A program made the translations under genes and the position numbers. From positions 1 through 45,986 of the forward strand of contig CAVDTK010000001.1 of NCBI GenBank assembly GCA_963611755.1: a DNA stretch of 45,986 nucleotides, in the 5' to 3' direction. The notes beneath the pieces were generated by a model that was not told the DNA's origin, searched no databases, and saw only the letters and a program-made list of their open reading frames with translations. Positions 3,780 through 37,953 of the stretch are shown here, one piece after another (positions within the stretch are counted from its first letter, which is position 1; each line of letters starts with the position of its first letter). The stretch comes from Oscillibacter sp. ER4. Lineage in GTDB: Bacteria > Actinomycetota > Coriobacteriia > Coriobacteriales > Atopobiaceae.

Positions 3780-3918
3780 AAACTTCCGCCAATTTACCTC
3801 TTAATTCAGAAACACCAAGTAGGCCAGGCCTAGAAAACTCCGCGACCTGGCCTTTTGCCGCGGCAAAGGAGCGGGATACCGACAGGCTTCGCAACAAGAG
3901 GTAAATTGGCGGAAGTTT
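3780..3918. repeat. Intergenic inverted-repeat element (perfect 23-bp arms, 93-nt spacer, central CAGGT core)
   Basis: AAACTTCCGCCAATTTACCTCTT (3780-3802) and AAGAGGTAAATTGGCGGAAGTTT (3896-3918). GACCTGGCCTTTT lies at the centre. Confidence 0.9.
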
Positions 3919-3940
3919 GACTCATCCAAAGGCCACCCGG

Positions 3941-3988
3941 ACACAAAACAGGGGCTTGTCTGATGGGAGGACATCAGACAAGCCCCTG
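3941..3988 (-). terminator. Rho-independent terminator
   Basis: Perfect 17-bp stem CAGGGGCTTGTCTGATG/CATCAGACAAGCCCCTG, followed by TTTT on the minus strand, downstream of the NmrA gene. Confidence 0.8.
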
Positions 3989-4023
3989 AATTGAAGCCCC
4001 GTTAGCGCTGCGGCGCCCCGGAC

Positions 4024-4998
4024 TTACTTAATGTCGCGCCAGTGGCGGACGTTGTTCTCCCAGATATAGGAATAGCCCTTCGCCAGCTCGCGAGCGGTCT
4101 TGGGCTTGGTACCGGTCACGTCCTCGATGTCGGTCGACGCGACGTCCATCAGGCCCTCGGCGATGCTGCCCTCGTTGGTCACCATGTCGTTGCCGCACCA
4201 GGGCACGGGCGCCTGCGAGAAGTCCTCGGTCGCGGTGCGCGGGATGTGCATGGAGTCCAGATACTCGAAGAACTCCTCGTGAGAGACCGGGCAGTACTCG
4301 ATGTCGCGGCCAGAAAGGTCGCTGATCATGGCCGCCAGGTCGCGCTGAGACAAGCTCTCGCAACCGCAGGCCTTGTACGTGCGGTTATCCTCGCCCTTGC
4401 CCAGCAGCAGCGCCGCGGCCATGCGGGCCACATCGTCCTTGGGCACGTAGGTGGCCTTACCCTCGCCCGCGGTGGTGTACCACTTGTTGCCGCTCATGAG
4501 CGCCAGCATCACCGAGGTGGTGAGGTAGTTCTCCAGATAGAGGTTGTCCTGCATGAAGTTGTACTTGATGCCCGTCTGCTCGGCGCGCTCGCGGATGTAG
4601 GCCTCGGTCGCGGTGTGGTCGGGCGTCACGTAGACGTGGGCATAGCGCGGATCGGACGCGCCGAGGAACGAGGTGTAGGTCAGGTGCTGGACGCCCGCCG
4701 CGATGGCCGCGTCGACCACGCTCTTGTGCTGCTGGACGCGGATCTCGCCGATGGTGACGGCGCTCACGATGTAGATGCGGTCGCCGCCGCGGAAGGCCTC
4801 GGTCATCTCGGCCACGTTGTCATAGTTGGCCTGGCGCACGGCGACGCCCGCGGCCTCCCAGCGCTCGCGCTTCTCGGGCTTCAGCCACTCCATGTTGGGG
4901 CAGGTGAAGATAAGGTCGGTAGCCGCGACCTCGCCCAGCATGAGCTCCGCGACGCGACCGCCCAGCTTTCCGTCGACGCCGGTAACGATGTACTTCAT
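4024..4998 (-). CDS. NmrA-family/atypical SDR NAD(P)-binding oxidoreductase
   Basis: N-terminal YIVTGVDGKLG Rossmann motif, AAIAAGVQHLTYTS and HTATEAYI; GGAGG RBS. Confidence 0.85.
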   Translation of the reverse strand: MKYIVTGVDGKLGGRVAELMLGEVAATDLIFTCPNMEWLKPEKRERWEAAGVAVRQANYDNVAEMTEAFRGGDRIYIVSAVTIGEIRVQQHKSVVDAAIAAGVQHLTYTSFLGASDPRYAHVYVTPDHTATEAYIRERAEQTGIKYNFMQDNLYLENYLTTSVMLALMSGNKWYTTAGEGKATYVPKDDVARMAAALLLGKGEDNRTYKACGCESLSQRDLAAMISDLSGRDIEYCPVSHEEFFEYLDSMHIPRTATEDFSQAPVPWCGNDMVTNEGSIAEGLMDVASTDIEDVTGTKPKTARELAKGYSYIWENNVRHWRDIK

Positions 4999-5085
4999 AC
5001 GATCCTCCAAACGCATGGGTTTACCTGCTTGCACCTTGGATTCTACGTGCCAAGCAATGGCATTCCCAATCGATATCACTTATCA

Positions 5086-5106
5086 TCGATAGATACTTTC
5101 TATCGA
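5086..5106. promoter_or_regulatory. LysR-type operator (T-N11-A dyad)
   Basis: Perfect TCGATAG-N7-CTATCGA between the divergent NmrA and LysR genes. Confidence 0.75.
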
Positions 5107-5148
5107 ACACCACCGCGCAGCAAACCCGCCGCAGAAAGGCGCGACGCC

Positions 5149-6030
5149 ATGAACTCCAAGCAGGTCGAGTGCTTTCTCTCCGCCGCCGAGACCCTCAATT
5201 TCACCGAGACGTCCCGGCTGCTCTTCATCTCGCAGCCCACGGTCACGCACAACATCGCGACGCTCGAGACGGAGCTGGGCTACCGCCTTTTCGACCGTGC
5301 GAACAAGCAGGTGACGCTCACGCCGGCAGGTCGGCATCTGTATAAATCGTTGAAGGAGATCGGCGTCGACCTGCGCAATGCGATGCTGCGTGCGCGCCTG
5401 TTTGGCGACGGCTACAAGACAGAACTTGTCGTTGGCTGCGGCTCATCCGAGTTCGAAGAGGCGCGCCTGCCCGCGATCGTCAAGCGCTACCGCGCCGAGC
5501 ACCCGGATGTCTATCTCTCCTTCGAGATGAGCCCCATGCGAGAAAAGCTCGCGCTGCTTTTGGCCGGCAAGATCGACCTGCTCCTCTCCACCACCAAGCA
5601 AGGCGCCGACCTCTCGCGCTGCGACTTCATCGAGCTGGCCTGCTATCCCCTCGTTTGCGTGATGGGCGCGCAGAACCCGCTTGCCGAGAAGGACTCCATT
5701 GTCCTCGACGACCTTGTTGACCAGGGGCTCGTTCTTCTCGACGGCCCGTGCGCTCCGCCCGAGATCGAGGAGGTCCAGGCCACGCTCGAGCACCGCTTCC
5801 AGGCCAACATCATCCAGCGCGTCCAGGACATGCGCCTAAGCCGCCTGGCGATGCTGTGCGACATGGGCGTGGCCGTCATGCCCGAGTTCAAGTTCCGCCG
5901 CGCCGAGGGGCTGGTCGCGCTCCCGTTCGAGTGGGGGCGCGACGTCCCCTACGGCATCTTGCTGCGCCGCGACGAGACGCGCGACCACGTGTGCGACTTC
6001 GCGCGCCTCGTCATGGACACAAGCTGGTAG
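5149..6030 (+). CDS. LysR-family transcriptional regulator
   Basis: LNFTETSRLLFISQPTVTHNIATLETELGYRLFDR HTH plus substrate-binding domain; AGAAAGG RBS. Confidence 0.93.
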   Translation: MNSKQVECFLSAAETLNFTETSRLLFISQPTVTHNIATLETELGYRLFDRANKQVTLTPAGRHLYKSLKEIGVDLRNAMLRARLFGDGYKTELVVGCGSSEFEEARLPAIVKRYRAEHPDVYLSFEMSPMREKLALLLAGKIDLLLSTTKQGADLSRCDFIELACYPLVCVMGAQNPLAEKDSIVLDDLVDQGLVLLDGPCAPPEIEEVQATLEHRFQANIIQRVQDMRLSRLAMLCDMGVAVMPEFKFRRAEGLVALPFEWGRDVPYGILLRRDETRDHVCDFARLVMDTSW

Positions 6031-6098
6031 GCGGTCAGCCGCTGAGAAACCCCGCGCGGCTTGGTGGCGAGAAGCCCGGCGCAGCCTACGCCGACCCC

Positions 6099-7550
6099 CT
6101 ACTTCTTGGCGGCGCGACCGGCGGCGTAGCCCGCGGCCTTGCGCATGCCGAGCGACAGCAGCAGGCCGATCACGGCCAGGACCAGCACAAACGTGAAGCC
6201 GTAGTGTGAGCCCGCGGTGGCCGCGGCCTGGGCGTCGAGACCCGCAGCGGTTCCTGCGGCCTCGCCGGCCGAGAGCATGCCCGTGGCCAGCGCGGTGCAG
6301 ACGGCGCCGCAGACCTGCTCCATCGTGTTGAGGATCGTCGAGCCGTCCGTGCCCATCTCGGCAGGCAGGGAGTTCAAGCCGTTGGTCTGGCAAGGCGACA
6401 TGGCCATCGGCACGCCGATCATCAGCAGGATGTGCGCGGCGATAAGGTAGGCGATGCTCGTCGACGTCGACGTGAACAGCATGAGCGCCGCGCCCACGCA
6501 CGAGATCGCGAAGCCGCAGCGGGCGGGAGCGGCCGCGCCCATGCGGTCATAGAACTTGCCGGAGCACAGGGAGACGCCAGCGTTGATGATGCCGCCGGGC
6601 AGCATGAGCAGGCCGGACACGGTGGCGGTAAGTCCCAGGCCGTTCTGTGCGAACTGCGGAATCAGATACATAGCGGCCAGGGTGATGCCAAAGTTGATCA
6701 TGACCAGCACGGCCGAGACGCGGAACTGCGGGTTGGCGAAGGCGCGCAGGTTAAGGACGGGCGTCTCGCTGGACAGCTGCCTGCGCACATAGACGACCAG
6801 GGCCACGACGCCCACGATCAGGGCACAGATGACAACGGCCGAACCCCAGCCCAGAAGGCTCGAGAGGCCAAAGCCCAAGACGATGCCGCCAAAGCCCAGG
6901 CAGGACAGGACGCACGAGGCCACGTCGACCTTGGGCCGCGTGAGCTCGTAGGGGCTTACCAGGCAGGTCGCGGTAAAGACCAGGCCCGCGGCCATCACGA
7001 CGGCGAAGATAAAGAAGAGCGCTCGCCACGAGAAATAGCCCAGGATAACGCCGGAAAGCGACGGGCCGATGGCGGGCGCGAACATGATGATGAGGGTCAT
7101 GAGGCCCATGGCGCTGCCGATCTTGGAGGCCGGGAACACCTCGAGGACCACGGCGAACATGGTGGGCAGCACAAGGCCGGTGCCGATGCCCTGGATGATG
7201 CGGCCGGCGAGCGCCACGCCAAAGTTAGGGGCCAGGGCGCTCATGAGCGAGCCAACGAAAAACGCGCCGAGCGCGAAAAGGGTAAGCGAGCGGACCTTGA
7301 ACCACTTCATGAGGATGCCCGCGAACGGCAGCACCAGGCCGATCATGAGCATATAGCCCACGACCATCCACTGCGCGAGCGCCGTGGTGATGCCAAAGAC
7401 CTTGGTGAGCTGCGGCAGCGCGACGTTAAGCGCGCTTTCCGAGAACATGCCGATAAAGCCTCCCAGGTAGAGGCCCATCATGGCGAGGTGCGGGTGCTCG
7501 ACGTGGACGCGAGCCGCATCTTGACTGGTAGGGATAGCAGAAGACGTCAC
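6099..7550 (-). CDS. DHA2-family MFS efflux transporter (LmrB-like)
   Basis: LNVALP, GRIIQGIG, APAIGP and WRALF motifs; about 14 TM segments. Confidence 0.9.
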   Translation of the reverse strand: MTSSAIPTSQDAARVHVEHPHLAMMGLYLGGFIGMFSESALNVALPQLTKVFGITTALAQWMVVGYMLMIGLVLPFAGILMKWFKVRSLTLFALGAFFVGSLMSALAPNFGVALAGRIIQGIGTGLVLPTMFAVVLEVFPASKIGSAMGLMTLIIMFAPAIGPSLSGVILGYFSWRALFFIFAVVMAAGLVFTATCLVSPYELTRPKVDVASCVLSCLGFGGIVLGFGLSSLLGWGSAVVICALIVGVVALVVYVRRQLSSETPVLNLRAFANPQFRVSAVLVMINFGITLAAMYLIPQFAQNGLGLTATVSGLLMLPGGIINAGVSLCSGKFYDRMGAAAPARCGFAISCVGAALMLFTSTSTSIAYLIAAHILLMIGVPMAMSPCQTNGLNSLPAEMGTDGSTILNTMEQVCGAVCTALATGMLSAGEAAGTAAGLDAQAAATAGSHYGFTFVLVLAVIGLLLSLGMRKAAGYAAGRAAKK

Positions 7551-7743
7551 CGATAAATCAGTCCTTTCTGTTGGACCGCGGCGCCATGAGGTGCGGCGCG
7601 CGGCCGGGGAAATATGACGGGTGCCTTATTTCCCCATTCGATCGGATTGAATCGATGATTTTCGAGAAATCGTTAAACTCGGCTGATTTAGCGAGACGGG
7701 CCATCGAGGCCGCGGGCTTCTCGCCGCCCGCCCCGACATACGC

Positions 7744-7809
7744 CGACGGGCCCAAAACCGTCAATCATGGCCTGTTCAGGGGGCATGATCGTCGTTTTTG
7801 GGCCCGTCG
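7744..7809. terminator. Long hairpin downstream of tatA, probable terminator
   Basis: CGACGGGCCCAAAA...TTTTGGGCCCGTCG outer stem with inner ATCATG/CATGAT. Confidence 0.55.
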
Positions 7810-7844
7810 AGGGGAGGAGCGAGGTGGGGCGTGGGACGCAGGGG

Positions 7845-8051
7845 TTACTCGGGGTCGTCGGCGTCGTCGACGGCATCGGCCGTGGCCTTGACCGGCTCGG
7901 GCTCGAGGTCGTCGGACTCCATGCCCTCGCGGAAGTTCTTGACCGTCTTGCCAATGGAGCTGCCCAGCTTGGGAAGGTTCTTGGGCCCAAAGATGACCAG
8001 GGCCACGATCAGGATAACGACAAGCTCTTGAATACCAAGACCAAGAATCAT
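7845..8051 (-). CDS. tatA: Twin-arginine translocase TatA/TatE subunit
   Basis: GIQELVVILIVALVIFGPKNLPKLGSSIGKTVKNFREG; GGAGG RBS. Confidence 0.93.
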   Translation of the reverse strand: MILGLGIQELVVILIVALVIFGPKNLPKLGSSIGKTVKNFREGMESDDLEPEPVKATADAVDDADDPE

Positions 8052-8181
8052 AAGAACCTCCAAAGCAAGTTACCGCAGCCCTTCTGGGCCTGTAAGTATC
8101 CTAAGCCGCCCATCTCGATAGGTAAAATACATCTTTTACGGCCATCCCATATAATTCTTGTATGCCACGCCGCACAAGAGA

Positions 8182-8223
8182 AGGCCCTTCTCGCCACGGC
8201 ACGTTCCATGGCGAGAAGGGCCT
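8182..8223. terminator. Hairpin downstream of the CoA ligase-ACT operon
   Basis: 15-bp stem AGGCCCTTCTCGCCA/TGGCGAGAAGGGCCT. Confidence 0.6.
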
Positions 8224-8287
8224 CGAACTTCAAACGAATCCCAGGTAGACAGCCGCGCGCAAGGTCTTCTCCCCTACGCCGCCGCCC

Positions 8288-8713
8288 TTACAGGTCGGCC
8301 TGCGACAGCGCCTTGAAGCCGCATCCCTCCAGCGTCCAGACGGCCTTGGCGGCAGCAGCCGCGTCGGCCACCTTGAGCGCCATGACGGCCGAGTCGCCCT
8401 GGTGAGAGAAGCAGTACCCGTACTCGATGTTGACGTTGAGGTTGTCCAAGGCCTCGAGAAGCTCGGCCATGCCGCCGGGGCGGTCGGGCACCGCGATGGC
8501 GGCCACCTTGGTCGTCGTGGCCGAGTAGCCCGCCGCGTCCAGAGCCGCGCGGGCCGCCGCCGAGTCCGCGCAGATGATGCGCACCAGGCCGTAGTCGGTG
8601 GTATCGGCGATGGACAGGGCGCTCATGTTCACGCCGGCGTCTGCCATCGTGCGGGCCAGCGCCGCGAGCCTGCCCTTGTCGTTCTCCAAAAAGACCGTGA
8701 TCTGATCAATCAT
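8288..8713 (-). CDS. Tandem ACT-domain protein
   Basis: QITVFLENDKGRLA, SIADTTDYGLVRI, VPDRPGG and NIEYGY; typical partner of PaaK-family ligases. Confidence 0.88.
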   Translation of the reverse strand: MIDQITVFLENDKGRLAALARTMADAGVNMSALSIADTTDYGLVRIICADSAAARAALDAAGYSATTTKVAAIAVPDRPGGMAELLEALDNLNVNIEYGYCFSHQGDSAVMALKVADAAAAAKAVWTLEGCGFKALSQADL

Positions 8714-8714
8714 C

Positions 8715-10022
8715 CTAGAGCTCCTTTCGCAGGTCGATGACGCGCTTTGCCTTGCCTTCGCTTCTGGGGATGCTCTTGGGCTCCACCAGGCGCACCTTGA
8801 TGCCCACCGAAAGCGCCGTCTTGAGGGCGCCAGAGATCTCCTTCTGCAGGCGCTCGACGGCCGCCACCGAGTCGAAGTCGAAACCAGGGTTGACCTCAGC
8901 CTTCAGGGTCACGACGTCCAGCGAGCGCGCGTCGGTGGAGACTTCGATCTGGTACCAGCTGGAGACCTGGTCGAAGGTCTTCATGACGTCCTCGATCTGG
9001 CTGGGGAAGACGTTGACACCGCGGATGATCAACATGTCGTCGGTGCGGCCGTGCAGGCGGTCGATGCGCCGGTGCGTGCAGCCGCAGGGGCACTGGCCGG
9101 GGATGATGCGCGTAATGTCGCGGGTACGGTAGCGCACGACGGGCGACGCCTCGCGGTCGACCGTGGTCAGGACCAGCTCGCCCCACTCGCCGTCGGGCAG
9201 GACCTCGCCCGTCTCGGGGTTGATGATCTCGGGGTAGAAGTGGTCCTCGGCCAGGTGCAGGCCCTTCTGCTCCCAGCACTCGTTGGCCACGCCCGGCCCC
9301 ATGGTCTCGGTCAGGCCATAGACGTCCAGGACTTTATAGCCCAGCTTGCGCTCCAGGTCGGCGCGGAAGTTGTCGCTAAAGGGCTCGGCGCCGTGGATGC
9401 CGGCGCGCAGGTGGAAGTCGCGCGCGGGGTCCAGGCCCATCTCGATGGCGGTGTCGGCGATGTGCATGGCGTAGGACGGAGTGCAGCACAGGATCGTCGA
9501 GCCCATCTCGCGCAGGACGCGGATCTGGCGCTCGGTGTTTCCGGCCGAGATGGGGATGACGGTCGAGTCCATCCAGTGGCCGCCGTAGTGCGCGCCCAGG
9601 CCGCCGGTGAACAGGCCGTAGCCGTAGGCGACCTGCACGACGTCGTTCTCATCCCCGCCGGCAAAGATGATGCCGCGAGCAAAGCACTCGCCCCAGATGT
9701 CGAGGTCGTGCTTGGTGTAGGCCCCCACCGTCGCCACGCCCGTGGTACCCGAGGACATGTGGATCTCCTTGACGTCCTTCAGGGGCACGGCCAGCATGCC
9801 GTAGGGATAGGCGTCGCGCAGGTCCTGCTTCTGGACAAAGGGGGCCGCGGCCAGGTCGTCCAGGCTCTTGACGGCGTAGGGGTCAAAGCCCGCCTCGTCG
9901 AAGCTGTGCTTATAGAACGGGATGTTCTCGTAGCAGTCGATGACGGTCTTTTTGATGCCCTCGAGCTGGATCTTCTCGATCTCGTCGTGGGGCGCGTGCA
10001 GGATCTCCTGAGTTTTTCCCAT
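8715..10022 (-). CDS. paaK: Phenylacetate-CoA ligase family protein
   Basis: SSGTTG, YGYGLFTGGLG, YGLTETMGPG, RYRTRD, GRTDDMLIIRGVNVFPSQIE and GKAKRVID motifs. Confidence 0.88.
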   Translation of the reverse strand: MGKTQEILHAPHDEIEKIQLEGIKKTVIDCYENIPFYKHSFDEAGFDPYAVKSLDDLAAAPFVQKQDLRDAYPYGMLAVPLKDVKEIHMSSGTTGVATVGAYTKHDLDIWGECFARGIIFAGGDENDVVQVAYGYGLFTGGLGAHYGGHWMDSTVIPISAGNTERQIRVLREMGSTILCCTPSYAMHIADTAIEMGLDPARDFHLRAGIHGAEPFSDNFRADLERKLGYKVLDVYGLTETMGPGVANECWEQKGLHLAEDHFYPEIINPETGEVLPDGEWGELVLTTVDREASPVVRYRTRDITRIIPGQCPCGCTHRRIDRLHGRTDDMLIIRGVNVFPSQIEDVMKTFDQVSSWYQIEVSTDARSLDVVTLKAEVNPGFDFDSVAAVERLQKEISGALKTALSVGIKVRLVEPKSIPRSEGKAKRVIDLRKEL

Positions 10023-10091
10023 CGTGGGCCCTTCTCGTTGGACGCGCCGCAAGCTGCGGCGCTTACCGCAATGGGACCGAGAATAACCCAA

Positions 10092-10514
10092 CTATGCGCG
10101 CCTGGCCTCCTCCAAGCGACGGACGGCCTCTGTCACCTTGTCAATGGCCTCGTCCACGCGGTCGGCCGCGTCCGACATGTCCTTTTGAACGAGAAGATCA
10201 GCCAGCGGGTTGTCGAAGGCGATGTCGAAGAGGGCGTTCAAGCTCGAGACGTTAGCGTTCAGGCGCGAGAGCTCGCGGACGTCGGCCAGCTCGTGCGAGA
10301 AGTTGCGGATCTCTTCGCGCGCGATGGCTAACGCATGGTTGGCGTCGCCCAAGCGCGAATGCTTGATGACGCTGGTCACAAGGCCGCCGCCGAAGATGTC
10401 CACAAGGCCCCAGCGCTGAGCGGATCCCAGGGAGTCGCGCGCGTCTTCCAACGCCTCGAGGGCGCGATGGCCCGCCTCAATGGCCTCGTCGATCTCTTTC
10501 TTACGGTCGTACAT
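10092..10514 (-). CDS. Conserved hypothetical helical protein
   Basis: GGGGAG RBS, high-GC codon bias, EIDEAIEAG..WGLVDIFGGG..KHS pattern. Confidence 0.75.
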   Translation of the reverse strand: MYDRKKEIDEAIEAGHRALEALEDARDSLGSAQRWGLVDIFGGGLVTSVIKHSRLGDANHALAIAREEIRNFSHELADVRELSRLNANVSSLNALFDIAFDNPLADLLVQKDMSDAADRVDEAIDKVTEAVRRLEEARRA

Positions 10515-10583
10515 GGCGCTCCCCCGGCTACGTCGCGGTCTTCCTGCAGGACAATTCTCCCACACCAACTGCCGCCGGAGTTA

Positions 10584-10774
10584 GGCGCTCAAAAACGAGT
10601 GCATATTGGTACTTTATGCCCGCGTGCGGAGAAGCCCGACGACGTTTGCCCAGTTGATTTTTAGGTACCCCCTCCCACATTTGAGCGAAATGAGGTCTTG
10701 AAGTACCAATACCCCTGCAAAATTGAGCGCCCCTAAGCTCAAAAGCACCAATATGGCACCTAAATTGAGCGCCC
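10584..10774. repeat. Intergenic element: one inverted unit plus three direct 42-bp-period units
   Basis: TTGAGCG at 10681, 10723 and 10765. AAG(T/C)ACCAATA at 10701 and 10743. Inverted TATTGGTACTT at 10604-10614 and GGCGCTCAA at 10584. Confidence 0.8.
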
Positions 10775-10802
10775 GCAGCCCGCGAGCGCCCTGGCAGCCC
10801 GG

Positions 10803-11237: not shown

Positions 11238-11336
11238 AAACCATCACCTGCTGAGAATACCCATCACAAATTGATATAAAAACAGGGCGAGAAGCTCCTG
11301 AGCCCCTCGCCCCGACAACACTACCAAAAGAAAGGC

Positions 11337-12785: not shown

Positions 12786-12854
12786 CACAACCTCCTTGTG
12801 CGGGCGCACGGAGCGGACACAACCGGCCAGGCGCCCCTCGATTGACGGGGTGTC

Positions 12855-16900: not shown

Positions 16901-17045
16901 GCAAAAATCGAGCATCTTGGCCGACTAAATCGAATCTGCCGAGTAGACGCAAAATCAGCAACGCATCTACCTGCGGTTTTATAAAGCAAACGGGCCCGGA
17001 TACTCGTCCGGGCCCGTTTAGTCGGCCAAGATGTCGCGTTTTTGC
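16901..17045. repeat. Intergenic inverted-repeat element (perfect 17-bp arms, 87-nt spacer, central CAGGT core)
   Basis: CATCTTGGCCGACTAAA (16913-16929) and TTTAGTCGGCCAAGATG (17017-17033), outer GCAAAAA/TTTTTGC. TACCTGCGGTTTT lies at the centre. Confidence 0.88.
16988..17019. terminator. Possible bidirectional terminator hairpin between convergent genes
   Basis: 13-bp stem AAACGGGCCCGGA/TCCGGGCCCGTTT. Confidence 0.6.
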
Positions 17046-28808: not shown

Positions 28809-28812
28809 GCGG

Positions 28813-31473
28813 CTACCCCTCTATCTTGACGATGGGAGCAAAACCGCGAAGCAGCTTCTTGGTCTTGCCGGTCCTGGTGAAACTGACCTCAAGGGTATCA
28901 CCCGAGACGCCCACGATGACGCCGGGACCGAAGGTCTTGTGCGAGATGCGGTCGCCCTTGGCGAAGGTGTCGCTGGAAGACGTTGCGGGGGCAGCCGCCT
29001 CGCCGGCTCTCTTGGCGTGCGGCGCGATGGGGGCGCCGGCGCTGCGGGATACCTTGGGGCGCGCGGCCGGGGCCTGCTGGCCAAACGAGGCGCTGGCACG
29101 GCGGGTGCCGAAGGTGCCCGCGCCGCCGGACGAGGCGGAGCCGGAGCCGCTGCCGAAGGAACCGCTGCTGGAACCGAAGCTACCGAAGGACCCGGAACCG
29201 CGACCCGTGCCGGAGCCGAAGGCCGACCCGCTGCCGAAGCCTAAGCCGGAAGACGGCCTGCTCTGGGGAGACCCGCCGGTCGAGCGGGTACGCGAGCCAA
29301 AGACGTGGCCGCCGTAGACCTCGGACCCGCGGCCGGAGCCAAAGGTCCCGTGGCGGTCTCCGCGCTTCTCCCAGCCCACGCCCGAGAAGCCCGACGAGCC
29401 CACACCCACGCGCTCGATATCATTAGCCGGGATCTCGCCCAGAAAACGGCTGGGCGGGTTTGCCGTGGTGGAGCCGTAGGTGCGGCGCGTGGCGGCAAAG
29501 GTCAGGTAGAGGCGCTGGCGGGCGCGCGTGATGGCCACGTAGGCCAGGCGGCGCTCCTCCTCCAGGTTGGACGGGTCGGAGTCGTACATGGCGTGCGGGA
29601 AGATGCCCTCCTCCATGCCGGCCACAAAGACCACCGGGAACTCCAGACCCTTGGCCGCGTGGATGGTCATCATCGTGACGGCATGGGTCTGCCCGGCCAA
29701 AGAATCGAGGTCGCTTCGAAGGGCGAGCCATTCCATGAAGGCCGGGAGCTTCTCGGCCGCCACGTCGGGGCGCAGCGGCTGCGTGGCGGGCGCGGGAGCC
29801 GCCGCAGGGGCAACCGCAGCCGCGGCCGCGCCGGCTTGGCCGTCCTCAAGGGCGCCGGCGGCGCGAAGCTGCTCCAGGGACTCCAAGGTCTCGGCCACGT
29901 TGTCGTGCGTCTCGTCGAACTCGGCGGCGACGGCCAGGAATTCCTTGATGTTCTCGATGCGGCCGTCCGCCTCGACGGTATGCTCGGCGGCCAGGGCCTG
30001 GATAAGGCCCGCTTTGTCGACGATGGCATCCACCACCTGCACCAACTCGCCCGAGATGTGGCGGCTGGACTCGATGATGCCGCAGAAGTCGCCCAGGGCC
30101 TGGCGGACCTTAGCCGAGAGCAGGCCCGTCTCGCAGATGGCCATCTGGCAGGCCGAGAAGAACGAGATGCCCTCCTGGGCGGCCAGCCCCGCGATCTTCT
30201 GGATCGAGGTGGTGCCGATGCCGCGGCGCGGCGTGTTGATCACGCGCTGGACCGCCACGTCGTCGTCGGGGTTGCAGACGGCCTTGAGATAGGCCATGAC
30301 GTCGCGCACCTCGGCGCGGTCGAAGAATCGCGTGCCGCCCACGATCTTGTAGGGCACGCCCGCGCGCAGGAACATATCTTCCAAGATACGGGACTGCGCG
30401 TTAGTGCGGTAGAAGACGGCCATGTCGTCGTAGCTCGTGCCGCCGTCGTGGAGTTTCTCGATCTCCGAGCCGATCCAGCGGCCCTCGTCGCGCTCGTCGG
30501 CGGCCTGGAAGACCTTGATCAGCTCGCCGTCGCCCGCGGTCGTGAACAGGCGTTTCTCCTTGCGGCGGGAGTTCCTGGCCACCACGGCGTTGGCGGCGTT
30601 CAGGATGTGGCCGGTCGAGCGGTAGTTCTGCTCGAGCCTCACCACGCGCGCGTCCGGGTAGTCCTTCTCGAAGTCCAGGATGTTCTGGATATCGGCGCCA
30701 CGCCACGAGTAGATGGACTGGTCGTCGTCGCCCACGACCATGAGGTTCTTGTACTTGCCGGCCAAAAGGTTGGTGATCGCGTACTGGACGTGGTTGGTGT
30801 CCTGGTACTCGTCCACGCTGATCTGGCGGAAGCGGTCCTGGTAGCCCTCGAGCACCTTAGGGTTCTTACTGAGAAGCTCCAGGGTCTTGAGCAGCAGGTC
30901 GTCGAAGTCCATGGCGTTGGCGCGCGCGAGGCGGCGGTCCAGCTCGCGGTAAACGCGGGCGGCGGCGCGATCGGCCGGGTTGGTAGACGACTCCATCTCT
31001 TCGGGGCCGACCATGGCGTTTTTGGCCGAGGAGATCTTGGAGCGCACGGCGTTGATCGGGAACTGCTTGGTATCGATGGAAAAGTCGCTCATGATGGCCT
31101 TGACCAGGCGCTTCGAGTCGTCGTCGTCATAGATGGCGAAGTTGGGCTTGTAGCCGATGAGCTCAGGGTCTTCTCGCAGCATGCGCACGCACATGGCGTG
31201 GAAGGTGCACACCCACATGCCGCGGGTGCCGCCGTCGGGCAGAAGGACGCCCAGGCGCTCGCGCATCTCGGCCGCGGCCTTGTTGGTGAAGGTGATGGCC
31301 AGGACCTGCCAGGGGCGCACGCCCTCGTCGGCGATCATGTGCGCAATGCGGAAGGTCAGCACGCGCGTCTTGCCCGAGCCGGCGCCCGCAAGGACCAGCA
31401 GAGGGCCCTTCGTGCAGGTAGCGGCCTCGTGCTGGGCCTCGTTCAAACCGGAGAGGTCGAAATTCTGAGTCAT
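28813..31473 (-). CDS. pcrA: PcrA/UvrD ATP-dependent DNA helicase
   Basis: AGAGSGKT, DEYQDTN, VGDDDQSIY, LEQNYRST, TIHAAKGLEF and EERRLAYVAITRA; G/S linker and Tudor-like C-terminal domain. Confidence 0.93.
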   Translation of the reverse strand: MTQNFDLSGLNEAQHEAATCTKGPLLVLAGAGSGKTRVLTFRIAHMIADEGVRPWQVLAITFTNKAAAEMRERLGVLLPDGGTRGMWVCTFHAMCVRMLREDPELIGYKPNFAIYDDDDSKRLVKAIMSDFSIDTKQFPINAVRSKISSAKNAMVGPEEMESSTNPADRAAARVYRELDRRLARANAMDFDDLLLKTLELLSKNPKVLEGYQDRFRQISVDEYQDTNHVQYAITNLLAGKYKNLMVVGDDDQSIYSWRGADIQNILDFEKDYPDARVVRLEQNYRSTGHILNAANAVVARNSRRKEKRLFTTAGDGELIKVFQAADERDEGRWIGSEIEKLHDGGTSYDDMAVFYRTNAQSRILEDMFLRAGVPYKIVGGTRFFDRAEVRDVMAYLKAVCNPDDDVAVQRVINTPRRGIGTTSIQKIAGLAAQEGISFFSACQMAICETGLLSAKVRQALGDFCGIIESSRHISGELVQVVDAIVDKAGLIQALAAEHTVEADGRIENIKEFLAVAAEFDETHDNVAETLESLEQLRAAGALEDGQAGAAAAAVAPAAAPAPATQPLRPDVAAEKLPAFMEWLALRSDLDSLAGQTHAVTMMTIHAAKGLEFPVVFVAGMEEGIFPHAMYDSDPSNLEEERRLAYVAITRARQRLYLTFAATRRTYGSTTANPPSRFLGEIPANDIERVGVGSSGFSGVGWEKRGDRHGTFGSGRGSEVYGGHVFGSRTRSTGGSPQSRPSSGLGFGSGSAFGSGTGRGSGSFGSFGSSSGSFGSGSGSASSGGAGTFGTRRASASFGQQAPAARPKVSRSAGAPIAPHAKRAGEAAAPATSSSDTFAKGDRISHKTFGPGVIVGVSGDTLEVSFTRTGKTKKLLRGFAPIVKIEG

Positions 31474-31637
31474 GGTGCCATCCAAAGCGTCAAAGATGAT
31501 TGTCCGTGCATGAGTGTAGCCGCCGCACCGGACATAAATTCGGACGGGCGTGCTGGGCGTTGCGGGGCGAGAGGGGCGCGGGGGCGGTGCCGGCAGCCCG
31601 CCGGAAACGGCCCGGCACCCACGCTCCGCCGCGCGGC

Positions 31638-32093
31638 CTACAAACTGGCGAGAAGGGCCTCGCACCCGGCAACGACGTCGCGGTAGGTCGCGTCGAAGTC
31701 GCCGGTGTACCAGGGATCGGCCACGTCGCGGGGAGAGTCCGTCCAATCGAGCAGGCGGCTTACCTTGCCCTGGGGGTCGTCCCCCAGGATGCGTCGCAGG
31801 CCGCGGGCGTTCTCGGCGTCCATATAAACGATGTGGTCCCACAGGCCGTAGTCCGCGCGGCGGATCTGGCGGGCGCGGTGCTTGCCCACGGGCACCCCCA
31901 CCTGGCGGAGCTTGGCCACCGTGCCGTGGTGGGGCGGGTTGCCGATCTCCTCGGTGCTCGTAGCGGCCGAGTCGATGAGAAACTCGTCGGCGCGGCCCGC
32001 GCGCTCAACCAGGTCCTGCATGACGAACTGGGCCATGGTCGAGCGGCAGATGTTGCCGTGGCAGATGAAGAGCACCTTGGTCACGTTGCGCAT
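31638..32093 (-). CDS. Low-molecular-weight protein-tyrosine phosphatase
   Basis: FICHGNICRS P-loop and DVADPWY. Confidence 0.93.
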   Translation of the reverse strand: MRNVTKVLFICHGNICRSTMAQFVMQDLVERAGRADEFLIDSAATSTEEIGNPPHHGTVAKLRQVGVPVGKHRARQIRRADYGLWDHIVYMDAENARGLRRILGDDPQGKVSRLLDWTDSPRDVADPWYTGDFDATYRDVVAGCEALLASL

Positions 32094-32106
32094 CCTTTCC
32101 CGCGGG

Positions 32107-33639
32107 CTAACCGTTGAAGTGGGCGCCGCGGCCGCCCTTCTTGCCGGCGTGGGGACGGCCGGCGTCGCCTGCGCCCTTGAGCTGCGAGTACCCGGTGTAC
32201 TTCGCGCGCTGGGGCTGCTCCAGTCGAACCCCGCCGTAGCCGTGGGAGTAGGTCGTGCCGCGGCGCAGGCTCATCTGCTTCTCGCGGCGGCGGCTCGACG
32301 CGCCAGAGCAGGCAAGGCCAACCAGGCACACGACGGCCACGGCGACCACCACGACGATGATCAGGTGCAGCGGGTCAGAGAGCCAGTCCATGACGAACAT
32401 CGGGATGGAGAGCTTGAGCTCGCTCGCCGTCTGGGCAGAAACGCTGCCCAGCTCACGGCCCTTATAGCTCACGCTCACCGTGCCGAGGTCGGCGCCCTTC
32501 TCCACAGGGGCGTCGACGGCAGCCGTCCAAGACGACTTGAAGGTAAGTGCCGAGGAAGCCGTGCCCGCAGGCACCGTCGCGCGCACGGAGCCGGTGGCCA
32601 GAGCCGCGACCGAGGTGCCCTCCTCAGACAGGCGGACGTCGGCCGAGCCCACGGTGTCGCCCGCGGCCACGACGTCTGCCGTGGTCCAGGACGCGTAGGC
32701 CCACTCGAGAAGCTCGTGCATCTCGGAGATGGCGGCCGTGTAGCCCTTGAGGTCGGTGTCGGCCCCCATCACGACGGCCACGAGATCCAGGCCGTTGTAG
32801 CTGGCGCCCACGGAAAGGCAGCGGCCGGCCGCGGGCGTGTAGCCGGTCTTTCCGGCAGTGACCGTGCCGTCCAGGTACCAGTCGGAGTCCTCGTTAAGCA
32901 GGAGATTCGTGTTGGTGAGGGTGCGCGCGGCGTTGCCCGAGGTTGCGGGCAGGTCCCACGTGGCGCTGCCCGAGACGCGCACGAACTCGGGCTGGCCCAT
33001 GGCGGCCTCGAGGATCTTGGCCATGTCGGCCGCCGTGGTGTAGTGGTCCTCGTCGTTTAGGCCGCAGGGGTTCATGAAGTGGGTATCGGCGCAGCCCAGC
33101 TCCGCGGCCTTCTCGTTCATCATGTCAACGAAGGCCTGGTAGCCGCCGGCGACGTGGCGCGCCAGCACGTAGGCCGCCTCGTTTCCGGAGGGCAGAAGCA
33201 GGCAGGCGAGGAGGTTCTCGATGCTCAAGGTCTCCCCCGCCACCAGGCCCGCGGTCGAGCTGTCCGAGGTGATCTGGTTGAGGTCTTCCTGGGTCACGGT
33301 CTCCTGCTCGTCGACGGAGGAGTTCTCGAGCACCACCAGGGCGCACATGACCTTGGTCATCGAGGCCGGATAGCGGCGCTCGGTGGCGTTCTTCTCGTAG
33401 ATGACCGTGTTGGTCGAGCGGTCGATGACCACGGCGGACCCGGCGGTGAGGTCGGGGCCGTCGACCTCGGACGCGGCCTTGGCGGCCGTGCCGTAGTCGA
33501 GCGCGGCGAAGGCCTGCGCGGGGCAGGCGACGATCGCGGCTGCCAGGGCCACGGCGAAGGCCAGGACGGCGCGCAGCGGGGCCGCGGGCGTCCTGCGGGC
33601 GGGCTCGTTCTTCTTTGACAGGGTCTTCTCGTCGAACAC
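32107..33639 (-). CDS. dacA: D-alanyl-D-alanine carboxypeptidase (peptidase S11) with C-terminal TM anchor
   Basis: SMTK (SxxK), SGN (SxN) and KTG motifs; signal peptide; GTG start after GAGG. Confidence 0.88.
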   Translation of the reverse strand: MFDEKTLSKKNEPARRTPAAPLRAVLAFAVALAAAIVACPAQAFAALDYGTAAKAASEVDGPDLTAGSAVVIDRSTNTVIYEKNATERRYPASMTKVMCALVVLENSSVDEQETVTQEDLNQITSDSSTAGLVAGETLSIENLLACLLLPSGNEAAYVLARHVAGGYQAFVDMMNEKAAELGCADTHFMNPCGLNDEDHYTTAADMAKILEAAMGQPEFVRVSGSATWDLPATSGNAARTLTNTNLLLNEDSDWYLDGTVTAGKTGYTPAAGRCLSVGASYNGLDLVAVVMGADTDLKGYTAAISEMHELLEWAYASWTTADVVAAGDTVGSADVRLSEEGTSVAALATGSVRATVPAGTASSALTFKSSWTAAVDAPVEKGADLGTVSVSYKGRELGSVSAQTASELKLSIPMFVMDWLSDPLHLIIVVVVAVAVVCLVGLACSGASSRRREKQMSLRRGTTYSHGYGGVRLEQPQRAKYTGYSQLKGAGDAGRPHAGKKGGRGAHFNG

Positions 33640-33658
33640 GGTTCTTAGTTCCTCTCGC

Positions 33659-34606
33659 CTAGCGGACCAGCGCGAAGTACGCGATGACCAGGATGCCCAG
33701 GACAATGCGGTACCAGCCGAAGGGCTTGAAGTTGTGCTTGCGGACAAAGCTCATCAAGAAGCGGATGACCAGCAGCGAGACCACGAAGGCCACGGCGCAG
33801 CCCACCAGAAGGATGGCCAGCTCACCGGCCGCGAAGGCGTTGCCTTTGAGGAAGAACTTGACCAGGCGAAGGCCCGAGGCGCCGGCCATGACGGGGATGG
33901 CCAGGTAGAAGGTGAACTCGGCCACTGCGGTGCGCGAGCAGCCCAGGAGCAGGCCGCCGATGATCGTGGAGCCGGAGCGAGAAGTGCCCGGGACGATGGA
34001 GAGCACCTGGAAGAGGCCGATGCCGATGGCGGTCTTCCAGTCGATCTCCTCGACGGTCTGGATGCGGGCGTCGGCGTCGGCCAGCTGCGAGCGGGTCGCG
34101 GGCTCGGCCGCGGCGGCGTGGGCCATGTGCTTGGGCGCGGGGCGCAGCGAGGAGGAGCCGTTGCCGCCGGGAAGGGCCGCGGCGGCTTTCTTCTCGCGGC
34201 TGGACTCGATGACGATGAACGCGATGCCGTAGACGATCAGGGCCGCCGCGATGACGAAGGGGCTGCCCAGGTGCTCCTCCATCCAGTCGTCGATAGGGAT
34301 GCCGATGACCGCGGCTGGGACGCACGCCACGATGGTCTTGCCCCACAGCGTCCACGTGTTGCGCTTCTCGATGGCCGACTTGGACGGCGCGAAGGGGTTC
34401 AGCTGGTGGAAGAAGATGACGCAGACGGCCAGGATCGCGCCGAGCTGGATGACCACCAGGAACATGTCCCAGAAGTCGGTCGAGACGTTCATGGTAAGGA
34501 ACTGGTTCAAAAGCAGCATGTGGCCGGTGGAAGAGATGGGCAGCCACTCGGTGATGCCCTCCACGACGCCAAAGACGGCCGCCTTCAGAAGCTCGATGAG
34601 ATCCAC
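33659..34606 (-). CDS. uppP: Undecaprenyl-diphosphate phosphatase
   Basis: GVVEGITEWLPISSTGH, PGTSRSGSTI and FGWYRI. Confidence 0.95.
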   Translation of the reverse strand: MDLIELLKAAVFGVVEGITEWLPISSTGHMLLLNQFLTMNVSTDFWDMFLVVIQLGAILAVCVIFFHQLNPFAPSKSAIEKRNTWTLWGKTIVACVPAAVIGIPIDDWMEEHLGSPFVIAAALIVYGIAFIVIESSREKKAAAALPGGNGSSSLRPAPKHMAHAAAAEPATRSQLADADARIQTVEEIDWKTAIGIGLFQVLSIVPGTSRSGSTIIGGLLLGCSRTAVAEFTFYLAIPVMAGASGLRLVKFFLKGNAFAAGELAILLVGCAVAFVVSLLVIRFLMSFVRKHNFKPFGWYRIVLGILVIAYFALVR

Positions 34607-34955
34607 GGTACCTCCTGTATATCCTGCATAGAGACAGATGGTTTAAGTTTCCTCTATAGGGGGTATCGGGTCGCGCAGAATTTCGCATGCGCAGCGAAAA
34701 ACCATCTGGGGCGGGCGACGAGACGGACGGGGGTCACCCGGGCTTCTCGCCGAGCTTCTCGCCTGCGGGCGCACGGCTCACGCCGACCTTCTCGCCAGCG
34801 GACCCGCCGCTCACCGGAAAAGGCCGCGCACACATGTGGCTTTACTCCCCTGCGGCGTTTCTCGCCCGCGACTTGGGGTAAGAAAGCCGCGACCAGCCGT
34901 TTTATGCGGCCCGTTTGCGGTCGGCGGGACTCGGCCGCGCGAGAAAGGAAGAACC

Positions 34956-35414
34956 ATGAGCGCCTCTGACACCTACCAAGACCTCGGTTACAAGAAAATC
35001 TTCGTCGCGCTGGACGGCTCGGACGGGCAGGGCAAGGTCCTCGACCGCGCGATCGCCCTGGCGGCAAACGACGAGGCCGAGCTTTACCTGGGCCACGCCA
35101 TCGACACGACCGCGCTTGAGGGCACCGGCGCCTTCCCGGCCGGGGTCATGCGCGACCTCGAGAAGCAGTTCCGCGAGTCGATCCAGCCGGCCGTCGACCG
35201 CGCCGAGGCCAATCCCCGGATCAAGAAAGTCGAGGTCATGGTGGGTAACGGCCGCATCCGCGAGACCCTGAAGGACGACATGCTCGACGTCATCCACCCC
35301 GACCTGGTCATCTGCGGCGCGCGCGGGCTTTCCTCCATCAAGTACGCGATCCTGGGCTCCATCTCGACCTTCTTGACCAGAAACTGCGAGTGCGACGTGC
35401 TCATCATCAAATAA
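34956..35414 (+). CDS. Universal stress protein
   Basis: YKKIFVALDGS, DLVICGARG, LGSIS and CDVLIIK. Confidence 0.92.
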   Translation: MSASDTYQDLGYKKIFVALDGSDGQGKVLDRAIALAANDEAELYLGHAIDTTALEGTGAFPAGVMRDLEKQFRESIQPAVDRAEANPRIKKVEVMVGNGRIRETLKDDMLDVIHPDLVICGARGLSSIKYAILGSISTFLTRNCECDVLIIK

Positions 35415-35556
35415 CGGTTCGAGGTTTTACTTTGCTTGCGGCGGCGGCCGCGGCGCGTGGATAAACGGTGACAAACCCTCAAGTAGGTTAAAGTAGGAGC
35501 ATTGCACGCCTGATCGCCCGGCGTTTTCCGGGACCCCGACTAAAAGGTATCGAGCC

Positions 35557-36687
35557 TTGACTTCTGTGAAACTCACCACCAGGGTTGCAAAGCCCGTCAT
35601 CGCCGCGACCGCTGCCGCCGCCATCTGCGCCGGCATCCTTGGCCTGGGCAGCTGCCCCGCCGGCGCGGCCACGCTCGACGAGCTCACGCAGCAGATTGAG
35701 CAGACCAACGACTCCTACGAGAGCGCCACGCAGAAGGTCGCCGAGATCGAGGCCAAGATCCAGGCCAACGAGGAGCGCATCGCCCAGATCGAGGCGGAGC
35801 TCCCCCAGAAGCGCCAGGCCGCCGCGACGTGCATGAAGGCGCAGTACAAGCTGCAGCAGGGGGCGAGCGGCCTCATCGAGCTGCTTCTCTCCGCCGAGAA
35901 CTTCAACGACTTCATCTCGACGATCCAGTACCTGGACGTCATCAATAACCACAACAACAACGCCATCGACGAGCTGGTCTCCGCCGACGAGGAGCTGGCC
36001 CAGACCCGCCTTACGCTCGAGACCGAGAAGCAGCAGGCCGAGGCCACCCAGCAGGAGGCGCAGGACTCCCTGAGCGCCGCGATCTCGGCCCGTCAGCAGC
36101 TTGAGCAGGAGATGGCCGCGCAGGCCGCCGCCGAGGAGGCCGAGCGCCAGGCCGCCGTCGCGGCTGCCGCTGCCGCCGCGAGCTCGAGCACCGATTCGGC
36201 CAACTCCGGCACGTCGAGCACCGACTCCAGCTCCAGCCAGACGACGTTCGACACCAACACCGGCAACTCTTCCGAGGTCAGCGTGCCCGAGAGCACCGAC
36301 CCCGGCACCGTCGACTGGAGCAGCGACAAGTCAGCGTTCATCTCGACCTGGACCTCGCGCATCGACGCTTATCTAGCCGGCAGCCCGATGGCCGGCTGCG
36401 GCAAGACCTTTGCCGAGGCCGCCTGGGACTACGGCGCGGACCCGCGCTTCTCGCCCGCCATCGCCTGCATCGAGAGCGGCAAGGGCACCTACTGCTTCAA
36501 GCCCCACAACGCCTGGGGCTGGGGCAGCTCCAGCTGGCCTGACTGGGACACCGCCATCCGCGCCCACGTCAAGGGCCTGGCGTCCATCTACGGTGGCCAC
36601 CTTACCTATGCCGGCGCACAGATGTACTGCCCGCCTAACGCCGACTTCTGGTACTCGTCGGTCGCGGCCCAGATGGAGCTCATCTAA
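35557..36687 (+). CDS. Secreted coiled-coil protein (PcsB/CwlO-like N-terminus) with lysozyme/glucosaminidase-like C-terminal domain
   Basis: Signal peptide, heptad repeats, ELLLSAENFNDFI, and C-terminal AIACIESGKG..HNAWGWG. Confidence 0.72.
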   Translation: MTSVKLTTRVAKPVIAATAAAAICAGILGLGSCPAGAATLDELTQQIEQTNDSYESATQKVAEIEAKIQANEERIAQIEAELPQKRQAAATCMKAQYKLQQGASGLIELLLSAENFNDFISTIQYLDVINNHNNNAIDELVSADEELAQTRLTLETEKQQAEATQQEAQDSLSAAISARQQLEQEMAAQAAAEEAERQAAVAAAAAAASSSTDSANSGTSSTDSSSSQTTFDTNTGNSSEVSVPESTDPGTVDWSSDKSAFISTWTSRIDAYLAGSPMAGCGKTFAEAAWDYGADPRFSPAIACIESGKGTYCFKPHNAWGWGSSSWPDWDTAIRAHVKGLASIYGGHLTYAGAQMYCPPNADFWYSSVAAQMELI

Positions 36688-36721
36688 GGGGTGCGCGATG
36701 GCCAGTGCGGCTGGCCGGGCT

Positions 36722-37780
36722 TTAACGACCCAAGGTCGACCAATCGATAAAGAGTTCGCGACGAAGCTCGTTTTGGGCCTCTAGCTGGCGCTTGCTCTTC
36801 TTGCGGCGGGGCAAGCCGGTCTTCTCGGCCACGATATTCAGCACCGCATCGAAAGAGGCGACGTCGAAGACCTGATCGAAGGTAAGAAGGATGACCTCGT
36901 AGCCCATGCTCATGAGCGCGGTCGTGCGGTTGGAGTCCGAGATCGAGGCGGCCTCGCCTGCGTGGACCGAGCGGCCCTGGCACTCGATGATCACGCCCGC
37001 GCTTTGGGACTTGCCCTCTATCAGGATGTCTGCGTAGCAGCATTCATGCGGGTAGATCCTCTTTGCCGCCGGGGTCAGGCGGATACGCTGGTTGTTCTTG
37101 ATGGCCAGGCCTTCGCCGCCGACCGACCTCGGCAACCCCAGGAGCATGGACGTTTGCGCCTCGAAGGGCGACGCGGTCACGCCGGTGAGCTGTGAGGCGC
37201 ACCAGCGCAGGTTCTTGACGCCGTGGAAGTTTGGAACTTCATCGCAGAAGCCAGCGAGCTCCTCGCGAGTGAGCAGCGGCGGACGGCGCCAAAGGTTTGT
37301 GCCAGCGTCATCGACGTTCTTGACGCGGCGCCAGCCCTCTCCCGGAAGGATAAAGCCTTGGCGCTCGGCCTCCCTGAGCTGGGCTTCCGCGCGGTCGCAC
37401 GGGTTGAACACCGCGAAATCGCCTGTCATCTCGAAGGCGGCCATAAGCAGATCGATGCGCGAGACGCTTCGCGCCAGGGTGAGCAGGGTCGCCGCAGGCG
37501 AGGTCACCGAAAAGCCGAAATCGGTCTCAAACACCGACCCAAACGGCAGGTCGCCCTTGATGTAATGCGAGTCATAGAGCTTCGTCACCCCATGATCCGC
37601 CATCTTAAATACAACTCGATGGATCGGTGTTTCAAGAAGATCGGAAACTATCGGCGAAGCAGCCAACTTCAAGTGATTCGAATCCTCATACGCAAATGGC
37701 AACGGAGGATACAGCCCGACTATTTGGGGCGGAACTCGATAGAAGCGTAAAGCGGTTGGCCCGCAAAGCGTGATGTCCAT
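36722..37780 (-). CDS. AbiEi-like / DUF559 (Vsr-like PD-(D/E)xK) putative endonuclease
   Basis: Central VTSPAATLLTLA; C-terminal SPFE, YADIL, IIECQG..H and D..R..AL..MGYEVILLT. 5' half is visibly more AT-rich than the neighbours. Confidence 0.72.
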   Translation of the reverse strand: MDITLCGPTALRFYRVPPQIVGLYPPLPFAYEDSNHLKLAASPIVSDLLETPIHRVVFKMADHGVTKLYDSHYIKGDLPFGSVFETDFGFSVTSPAATLLTLARSVSRIDLLMAAFEMTGDFAVFNPCDRAEAQLREAERQGFILPGEGWRRVKNVDDAGTNLWRRPPLLTREELAGFCDEVPNFHGVKNLRWCASQLTGVTASPFEAQTSMLLGLPRSVGGEGLAIKNNQRIRLTPAAKRIYPHECCYADILIEGKSQSAGVIIECQGRSVHAGEAASISDSNRTTALMSMGYEVILLTFDQVFDVASFDAVLNIVAEKTGLPRRKKSKRQLEAQNELRRELFIDWSTLGR

Positions 37781-37827
37781 AGCGCCCCGTCCCAAAGACC
37801 ATTTTGGCTCACAGTGCCATCATTCTT

Positions 37828-37953
37828 ACGAAAGTTGGGACCAGTTTAAGCAATCAGCAAGTAGAACGGTCGAATCAACCAAGAAACCGCAGGTCAATTC
37901 AAGCAAAAAGTACCGTGTACTCAGCAAACGGCTAAACTGATCCCAACTTTCGT
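37828..37953. repeat. Inverted-repeat element (21-bp arms, 1 mismatch, 84-nt spacer, central CAGGT core) upstream of the nuclease gene
   Basis: ACGAAAGTTGGGACCAGTTTA (37828-37848) and TAAACTGATCCCAACTTTCGT (37933-37953). AAACCGCAGGTCA lies at the centre. Confidence 0.9.

Follow-up and report, generated by a model that had tools for sequence, protein, structure and literature searches.

Intergenic inverted repeats and Vsr-like nuclease genes in an Atopobiaceae genome: a candidate REPIN–RAYT-like system with an unrelated enzyme

RAYT genes are flanked by their own repetitive extragenic palindromic (REP) sequences. REPINs, the repeats of the REPIN–RAYT system, are described as extragenic inverted doublets of about 100 bp, with conserved arms and a variable spacer (bioRxiv 10.1101/2021.07.10.451892; PMC5581495). 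MITEs (miniature inverted-repeat transposable elements) are presented as short non-coding units with terminal inverted repeats whose enzyme acts in trans (bioRxiv 10.1101/2021.07.10.451892). Here, we examine dispersed intergenic inverted repeats in a 45,986-nucleotide stretch of DNA, hereafter the window, from a genome deposited as Oscillibacter sp. ER4 and placed by GTDB in the Atopobiaceae (assembly GCA_963611755.1, contig CAVDTK010000001.1, positions 1 to 45,986, forward strand). The repeats belong to families with different arms on one skeleton, and the families are paired with paralogs of a predicted nuclease gene. The tie between each arm type and a gene copy of its own points to a selfish repeat-and-enzyme system. 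We consider it probable that the elements are non-autonomous mobile repeats, each arm family being served by its own nuclease paralog, in a system like REPIN–RAYT but with an unrelated enzyme.

Like REPIN–RAYT, the system has inverted extragenic doublets dispersed in many copies, whose arms are conserved while the spacer varies, and a cognate enzyme gene paired with them. It differs in that the enzyme is a predicted PD-(D/E)XK Vsr-like nuclease and not an HUH tyrosine transposase, that 14 paralogs with changing gene positions replace a single-copy enzyme at a fixed locus, and that the arms are mostly not short palindromes, with a conserved core fixed at the dyad. A search of the genome, estimated to be 97% complete, for the RAYT/IS200 transposase (PF01797) gave 0 candidates (control found in 6 of 14). 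The system is outside the known families tested, and membership in REPIN–RAYT fails on the lack of an HUH gene, the many paralogs and the moving gene.

In E. coli, the RIB or BIME-1 elements of Boccard and Prentki (1993) reportedly consist of two inverted repeats around a central asymmetric site and lie at the ends of transcription units. The present elements resemble RIB/BIME-1 in this layout, but many arm families share one core, and no gene of the HU/IHF family (PF00216) was found in the genome (208 contigs; control found in 9 of 14). The core also differs from the IHF consensus. Like MITEs, the elements are short, non-coding and bounded by terminal inverted repeats, and they would depend on an enzyme in trans. 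Unlike with MITEs, no transposon was found to have matching ends, the gene is placed between complete elements and not between two arms, and no target duplication is seen in copies that may be too old to show one. A full-text search, with subscription journals and supplements outside it, found no published description of the gene–repeat pairing, and a survey of GTAG/CGTC repeats (PMC3733652) has no hit for Actinobacteria or Coriobacter. Published 'REP-associated restriction endonucleases' are not borne out by a term search of two papers by Bertels.

Geometry, core and arm families of the elements

The window is contig C1 of a 2.24-Mb assembly in 208 contigs with a GC content of 63.8%. We denote the window's genome G000 and contigs by C-numbers. 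The comparison includes 18 congeners (G002, G003, G005, G006 and G013 among them), giving a genus set of 19 genomes, and 12 sampled genomes of other genera.

Four inverted repeats proposed in a first-pass annotation were all re-found, with the arm lengths it had claimed. Element 1 (3780..3918) has 23-bp perfect arms of the AAACTTCCGCCAAT family and a core at 3844-3855 on the minus strand. Element 2 (16913..17033) has 17-bp perfect arms of the CATCTTGGCCGACT family and a core at 16968-16979, also on the minus strand. Element 3 (37828..37953) has 21-bp arms with one mismatch, of the CGAAAGT(T/C)G family, and a plus-strand core at 37884-37895; it lies 47 nt upstream of a nuclease gene at 36722-37780 (minus strand), which the annotation missed, so that its reading lacked the partner gene. 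Element 4 extends over 10581..10776 if its longer family arm is counted; the 11-bp perfect arms delimit 10604-10711, and the core is at 10645-10655 on the plus strand. Its arm family is GCGCTCAATTT-n-ATATTGGTRCT plus an additional half repeat. The cores of elements 1–3 are centred on the dyad, as had been claimed, but that of element 4 is the common variant TTTGCCCAGTT and lies about 6 nt off centre; TTTGCCCAG[GT]T has 48 genomic copies. The arms had been called mutually unrelated. They do differ, but each represents a multicopy family with a common positional skeleton, and those of element 2 are kin to another family in the genome. The notion that the spacer consists of two 42-bp units is rejected because the spacer length merely marks the break of perfect symmetry; the 42-bp period belongs to a separate array family, GGGTTGTCTGAT.

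The combination of shared geometry, centred core and different arms extends across the whole genome and to all 19 genomes of the genus set. Perfect inverted repeats of at least 15 bp show the spacer-length peak that the annotation anticipated, at 80–99 nt and well above shuffles: 51 have spacers of 80–89 nt and 21 of 90–99 nt, with 10 and 6 in the adjacent bins on either side, while each of three local triplet shuffles gives 1–2 over all bins summed. Tandem arrays of coreless repeats from other families contribute part of this peak. A genome scan for arms of at least 13 bp with spacers of 76–106 nt yields 134 repeats, and 75 contain SSCAG[GT]T. In 64 of these 75, the core is at +0.5/+1 from the dyad, where uniform placement would give about 2–3; the proposed enrichment at the midpoint is thus borne out. 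The 59 repeats without the core are mostly tandem arrays of other families, as judged by eye.

An element is about 120–140 bases long, and the order of its parts is outer A-tract, arm, RGTA, WWWSSSCAG(G/T)T, TACY, arm. RGTA and TACY are each about 30 nt from the dyad. Profiled together, the 64 elements have AAA at -67 to -65 and TTT at +69 to +71, with the inner AGTA at -29 to -26 and TACT at +30 to +33. A pattern made of the inner skeleton, free of any arm, has 55 copies in the window's genome and 5–90 in each of the 18 congeners, against 0–4 per congener for the reversed control. Outside the genus, it has 11 copies in one other genus and 0–3 in the remaining 11 genomes.

The core alone occurs 254 times in the window's genome versus 34 for its reverse; therefore, most cores lie outside the 64 perfect-arm elements. 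Eleven further core sites, aligned by eye, include two imperfect family-3 elements, one site after a tRNA-like sequence and several that look coding. A scan of 81 genomes counts 244 cores against 19 reversed in the window's genome and finds the core in about two- to four-fold excess over its reverse in the five other sampled genomes of the same order. As a phylum-wide signal, the core was rejected, being weak or absent in most of the 81 genomes beyond the order (the tally includes G031 and G077, on which no claim rests). Separately, TTTCCGCAGGTC is recurrent among the listed core matches in distant Actinomycetota (G099, G084, G069, G054 and G040). Possibly the core marks a phylum-wide site of low copy number, recognised by some binder.

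Each window element has relatives elsewhere in the genome. Family 1, that of element 1, has 14 full copies and one lone arm and is found in none of the 18 congeners; family 2 has 10 full copies, family 3 at least 6, and family 4 has 20 arms. In family 1, the arms and skeleton are fixed and the interiors have diverged, and 3 of the 14 copies have a variant on both arms together. Seven of the ten element-2-type copies have a ACAAGTATGCCATC element 38–48 bp away, its orientation being constant in 7 of 7 doublets. In these doublets, one element-2 interior is flipped and another is replaced by the interior of the neighbouring family. Two variants of family 1 likewise form doublets. The elements occur in both orientations, and many are at 3' ends.

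As folded single-stranded DNA, elements 1–3 have z scores of -6.5 to -9.9, and the family-1 covariation score, 0.200, is reached by 2 of 500 shuffles. The idea of one long continuous hairpin was rejected, since only one of five covariation measures beat shuffles and the inner positions pair poorly. Binding as a duplex accounts better than a single long hairpin does for the fixed spacing and the patchy symmetry.

A family of Vsr-like nuclease genes and its pairing with the repeats

The cognate nuclease gene of the window (36722..37780, minus strand) encodes 352 amino acids and is free-standing between two intact genes, for EamA and a PcsB-like protein. The protein has no family match above cut-off; weak matches are to MTES_1575, DUF559 and AbiEi_1, the last, from Pfam, with an E-value of 0.041 and in 1 of 13 paralogs. 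NCBIfam has no match for it, Foldseek on PDB returns nothing at E<=0.001, and PADLOC has no match in 13 of 13 paralogs. Its neighbours in the Atlas are mostly from Actinomycetota. The predicted model has a predicted local distance difference test (pLDDT) score of 86. Residues ~200–322 best match the EDxHD homing endonuclease I-Bth0305I (3r3p; E 4.8e-5, Z 10.1, root-mean-square deviation (rmsd) 2.3, 95 aligned), followed by NGO0050 (Z 8.8) and Vsr (Z 8.7, rmsd 2.5, 100 aligned); RAP-type domains, those of FASTKD4 and mitoribosomal proteins, take ranks 4–8. Residues 1–198 match residues 68–195 of AbiEi 6y8q (Z 7.8, rmsd 3.6, 117 aligned) and, less closely, Rv2827c (Z 5.5). The winged-helix part is unmatched because the model aligns to AbiEi only from AbiEi residue 68. 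On this modelling, the protein is a predicted two-domain PD-(D/E)XK Vsr-like nuclease, with an AbiEi-antitoxin-like N-terminal and a Vsr/EDxHD (DUF559/MTES_1575-like) C-terminal domain.

An iterative search gave 14 paralogs in the genome and the split-off start of one. The EDxHD-type residues E206, D250, H272 and D281 (alignment numbering) are invariant in 13 of 13 aligned paralogs, the partial C73 gene being left out of the alignment, and the His-x8-Asp spacing is that reported for I-Bth0305I (PMC3239194). Homologs are present in 18 of 18 congeners and in 7 of the 12 other genera; a related-locus search with a narrow alignment gave 10 loci, which contributed nothing more. I-Bth0305I also has its Vsr-like domain, with this residue spacing, behind a DNA-binding region, and the present system would share with it long symmetric targets and a link to mobility (PMC3239194). 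Unlike homing endonuclease genes, the gene here is free-standing with no intron or intein, and the repeats that bracket it also occur without it; unlike I-Bth0305I, the N-terminal domain is AbiEi-like. The AbiEi and Rv2827c type IV antitoxins may resemble the protein in N-terminal fold, and they bind inverted repeats near their own genes (PMC7319586), as is proposed for this protein. They differ in that here the domain is fused to a nuclease, the winged helix is unmatched, no toxin partner is seen and the repeats are genome-wide. At the one locus annotated, that of the window's gene, no nucleotidyltransferase toxin gene stands beside it, the neighbours being EamA and PcsB-like.

The pairing of genes with repeats extends to all paralogs. 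By eye, every one of the 14 is flanked by a repeat family, 10 of them on both sides, each by a different family. The C72 paralog is bracketed on both sides by element 1 arms, and the paralog at C23:20002-21015 has a centred copy of the element 4 family upstream. Others are flanked by tandem GGGTTGTCTGAT, GGACTTATCGGAAG, CATGTC.GTGGAT and similar families. Two further features of the window belong to such families: a short GGGTTGTCTGAT hairpin at 3949..3988, beside element 1, whose family flanks the paralog at C23:4612-5625, and a CATGTC(G/T)GTGGAT array at 97..270, whose family flanks the paralog at C10:20083-21252. Among 60 congener homologs, taken from the best-scoring of 150 listed matches and including some loci that stop at contig ends, a long inverted repeat adjoins the gene in 55 and matching arms lie on both sides in 34. 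In this flanking of the enzyme gene by cognate repeats (14/14 paralogs, 55/60 congener homologs), the system is like REPIN–RAYT.

Arms and proteins also occur together across genomes. The arm TTCGCACTYTAAA is present in 6 of 6 genomes with a 77–100% ortholog (31, 22, 16, 10, 5 and 3 hits). Among the 13 genomes without the ortholog, the arm is absent from 11, occurs as a single arm in another, and has 11 hits in that of the window, where no ortholog was found. Over the 19 genomes, the skeleton count rises with the paralog count (rank correlation ~0.85, by hand), although the genomes, being kin, are not independent and copies flanking genes are included. The tracking of proteins by arms rests on pairwise identities and two families. 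Beside the orthologs of the C33 paralog (69–77% identical to the G005 copy), the arms have drifted: they are related but distinct on a CA-n5-G(C/T)C-n4-AAA frame, being those of element 2 in G005 (a 69% ortholog), ACAAGTATGCCATC in the window's genome, ACAAATGTGCCTCC in three genomes and other variants in three more. The variation in the protein is concentrated near residues 55–75 and 97–115, as judged by eye.

Turnover among congeners, a proposed mechanism and its rivals

The congeners are about 80% identical to the window's genome, and the comparisons of loci are at the level of species, without exact ends or direction. The gene changes position: it is missing from the PcsB-like/EamA slot in 5 of the 5 closest congeners, whose orthologs are on other contigs with different downstream neighbours. 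Element 3 is kept at the slot in G002, G003, G005 and G006 with species-specific symmetric arm variants, which resemble those beside each species' own gene (checked in G002, G003 and G005). It is absent in G013, where the flanks join across an A-run. In G003, a small helix-turn-helix/Fic-like cassette fragment occupies the slot of the nuclease gene (L129:1980-2470, by eye). The gap of element 2 turns over as well: no such element lies there in G006 or in G005, where the sequence includes a run of N, and in G013 and G002 another repeat family is there instead. The genes neighbouring element 4 have a different centred family upstream in G013, and those neighbouring element 1 are not adjacent in the matched congeners.

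We propose that the protein would read the family-specific arm at two symmetric half-sites of about 45 bp. A shared factor, probably encoded by the host, would bind the centred asymmetric core and bring the arms together. The nuclease domain would then nick at a position independent of the family, either the RGTA/TACY pair or the outer A-tracts, and host repair would place copies of the element in gaps between genes, frequently next to elements already there. Such cuts would also allow interiors to be inverted or exchanged and the gene to shift between the two elements that bracket it. Two candidates for the core binder were rejected: the HU/IHF-family IHF, its gene not being found in the genome, and the actinobacterial IHF, whose gene is present but which is reported to lack a sequence motif and to leave DNA unbent (PMC3627587, PMC6155035). 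It is possible, though we would stop a little short of calling it probable, that this is a new class of mobile DNA, in which an AbiEi-like reader fused to a PD-(D/E)XK nuclease would both copy and rearrange its own repeats, with no recourse to HUH, DDE or recombinase chemistry. Diversification of the paralogs would come from changes in which arm they recognise, while the geometric scaffold, with a site for a host factor at its centre, stayed fixed, and the related arm types found side by side may be such a switch in progress.

Several observations, like the loss of both candidate binders, weigh against mobile repeats served by their own nucleases. At least two families in the window's genome (208 contigs) have no matching gene found. 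One is TTCGCACTTTAAA, with 11 hits and a best protein of 46–47%; family 2, whose gene now carries other arms, is counted as another. The interiors of copies have diverged, unlike those of fresh transposon copies, and no target duplication is visible by eye in 14 aligned flanks, where the copies may be too old. The congener set has no clean pair of empty and filled sites from close strains. Element 3 is kept at one site in 5 of 6 species, so it is old and perhaps selected. The N-terminal match, at Z 7.8, is within the range of common arrangements. The mechanism is inferred from sequence and predicted structure.

The strongest rival holds that the elements are operators or chromosome-organising sites for AbiEi-like regulators, arising and decaying by local evolution and gene conversion, with another role for the nuclease domain. 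AbiEi and Rv2827c, which the N-terminal domain resembles in predicted fold, autoregulate through inverted repeats in their promoters (PMC7319586). Element 3 is directly upstream of its own gene at its long-kept site, and the patchy symmetry, with blocks about one helical turn apart, is like that of duplex binding sites. However, elements are also found downstream of the genes and in gaps where unrelated genes converge, entire 140-bp units recur 10–14 times with interiors typical of their family, and families are swapped at orthologous gaps. The window's gene has no toxin partner beside it, and the winged-helix part of AbiEi is unmatched by the model. We regard operators as unlikely.

Another possibility, an improbable one in our view, is that a different enzyme, an insertion sequence transposase or host recombination, spreads MITE-like units, and that the nuclease genes are carried along as passengers, or serve as addiction modules by cutting sites left unprotected. 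An IS1595 remnant is present in the window, families without a found gene persist, and the Fic-like fragment in G003 (by eye) is different cargo beside element 3. Yet passengers would not be expected to show one-to-one pairing of arms with paralogs or co-occurrence in 6 of 6 genomes, PADLOC is blank for the paralogs (13/13), and the elements have no common terminal sequence except the A-tract. Least probable is that the elements are RNA or single-stranded hairpins at transcript ends, acting in termination or stability, with a Vsr-like domain that binds or cuts RNA as RAP domains do: the folding scores, the many 3'-end positions, the RAP-type ranks, the joint arm switch in family 1 and its covariation score would fit, but the folding stems from the terminal arms, pairing is poor at inner positions, four of the five covariation measures are no better than shuffles, the arm switch is one inherited event, both orientations occur, Rfam has 0 matches within the window, introns included, and the copying is left unexplained.

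Other repeats of the genome and wider implications

Further repeats surround the system. A member of another dispersed family, with CGACGGGCC arms and a 38–44 nt spacer, lies at 7740-7809; the family has at least six copies and no identified partner gene. In yet other families (GCGCAGTTCCGCATGAGCCG..., GCTCAGCGCTCGC... and GCAAAGTGCTTCTGAGCGCG...), the interior is conserved and the arms vary, the reverse of the elements studied here; these are at G000:C5:26111-26217, C36:12769-12874, C110:60-167 and elsewhere. Several repeat families are piled in single intergenic gaps at G000:C24:12681-13560 and C36:12092-12874. A cluster of GTTTCACGTGGAAC palindromes occupies G000:C9:15715-16020; we take these to be parS-like, and presumably near the origin. 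The heptamer CGAGAAG occurs 101 times in the window on both strands versus 9 expected (dinucleotide shuffles, with codon bias uncontrolled), and inverted pairs of it lie in intergenic hairpins, e.g., at 8182-8223. Neisseria uptake sequences likewise form inverted pairs in intergenic hairpins; CGAGAAG is possibly an uptake, Chi-like or HIP1-like signal.

Elsewhere in the window, an IS1595-family transposase (821-1868) is split over two open reading frames, and three tandem 32-nt repeats with a GCAACTTTT core (1917-2012) lie upstream of an amino-acid permease. The NmrA-like gene at 4024-5079 (minus strand) is 89–94% identical across congeners versus ~75–79% for its neighbour, and its flanks differ, which suggests recent horizontal spread. 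No tRNA was detected in the window.

Proteins of the DUF559/AbiEi type form a common family in Actinomycetota that is still uncharacterised, and in genomes that lack RAYTs there is no explanation for where many of the intergenic palindromic repeats came from. Since many paralogs with readable cognate sites share one scaffold, cross-pairing proteins with arms allows assays of binding specificity, of where the cut falls and of mobilisation. If the proposal is true, the genus would hold dozens of natural protein–DNA specificity pairs, the protein–arm pairs would be a natural set of long-site DNA-targeting nucleases, and REPIN-like replicators would have evolved a second time, with a different chemistry.

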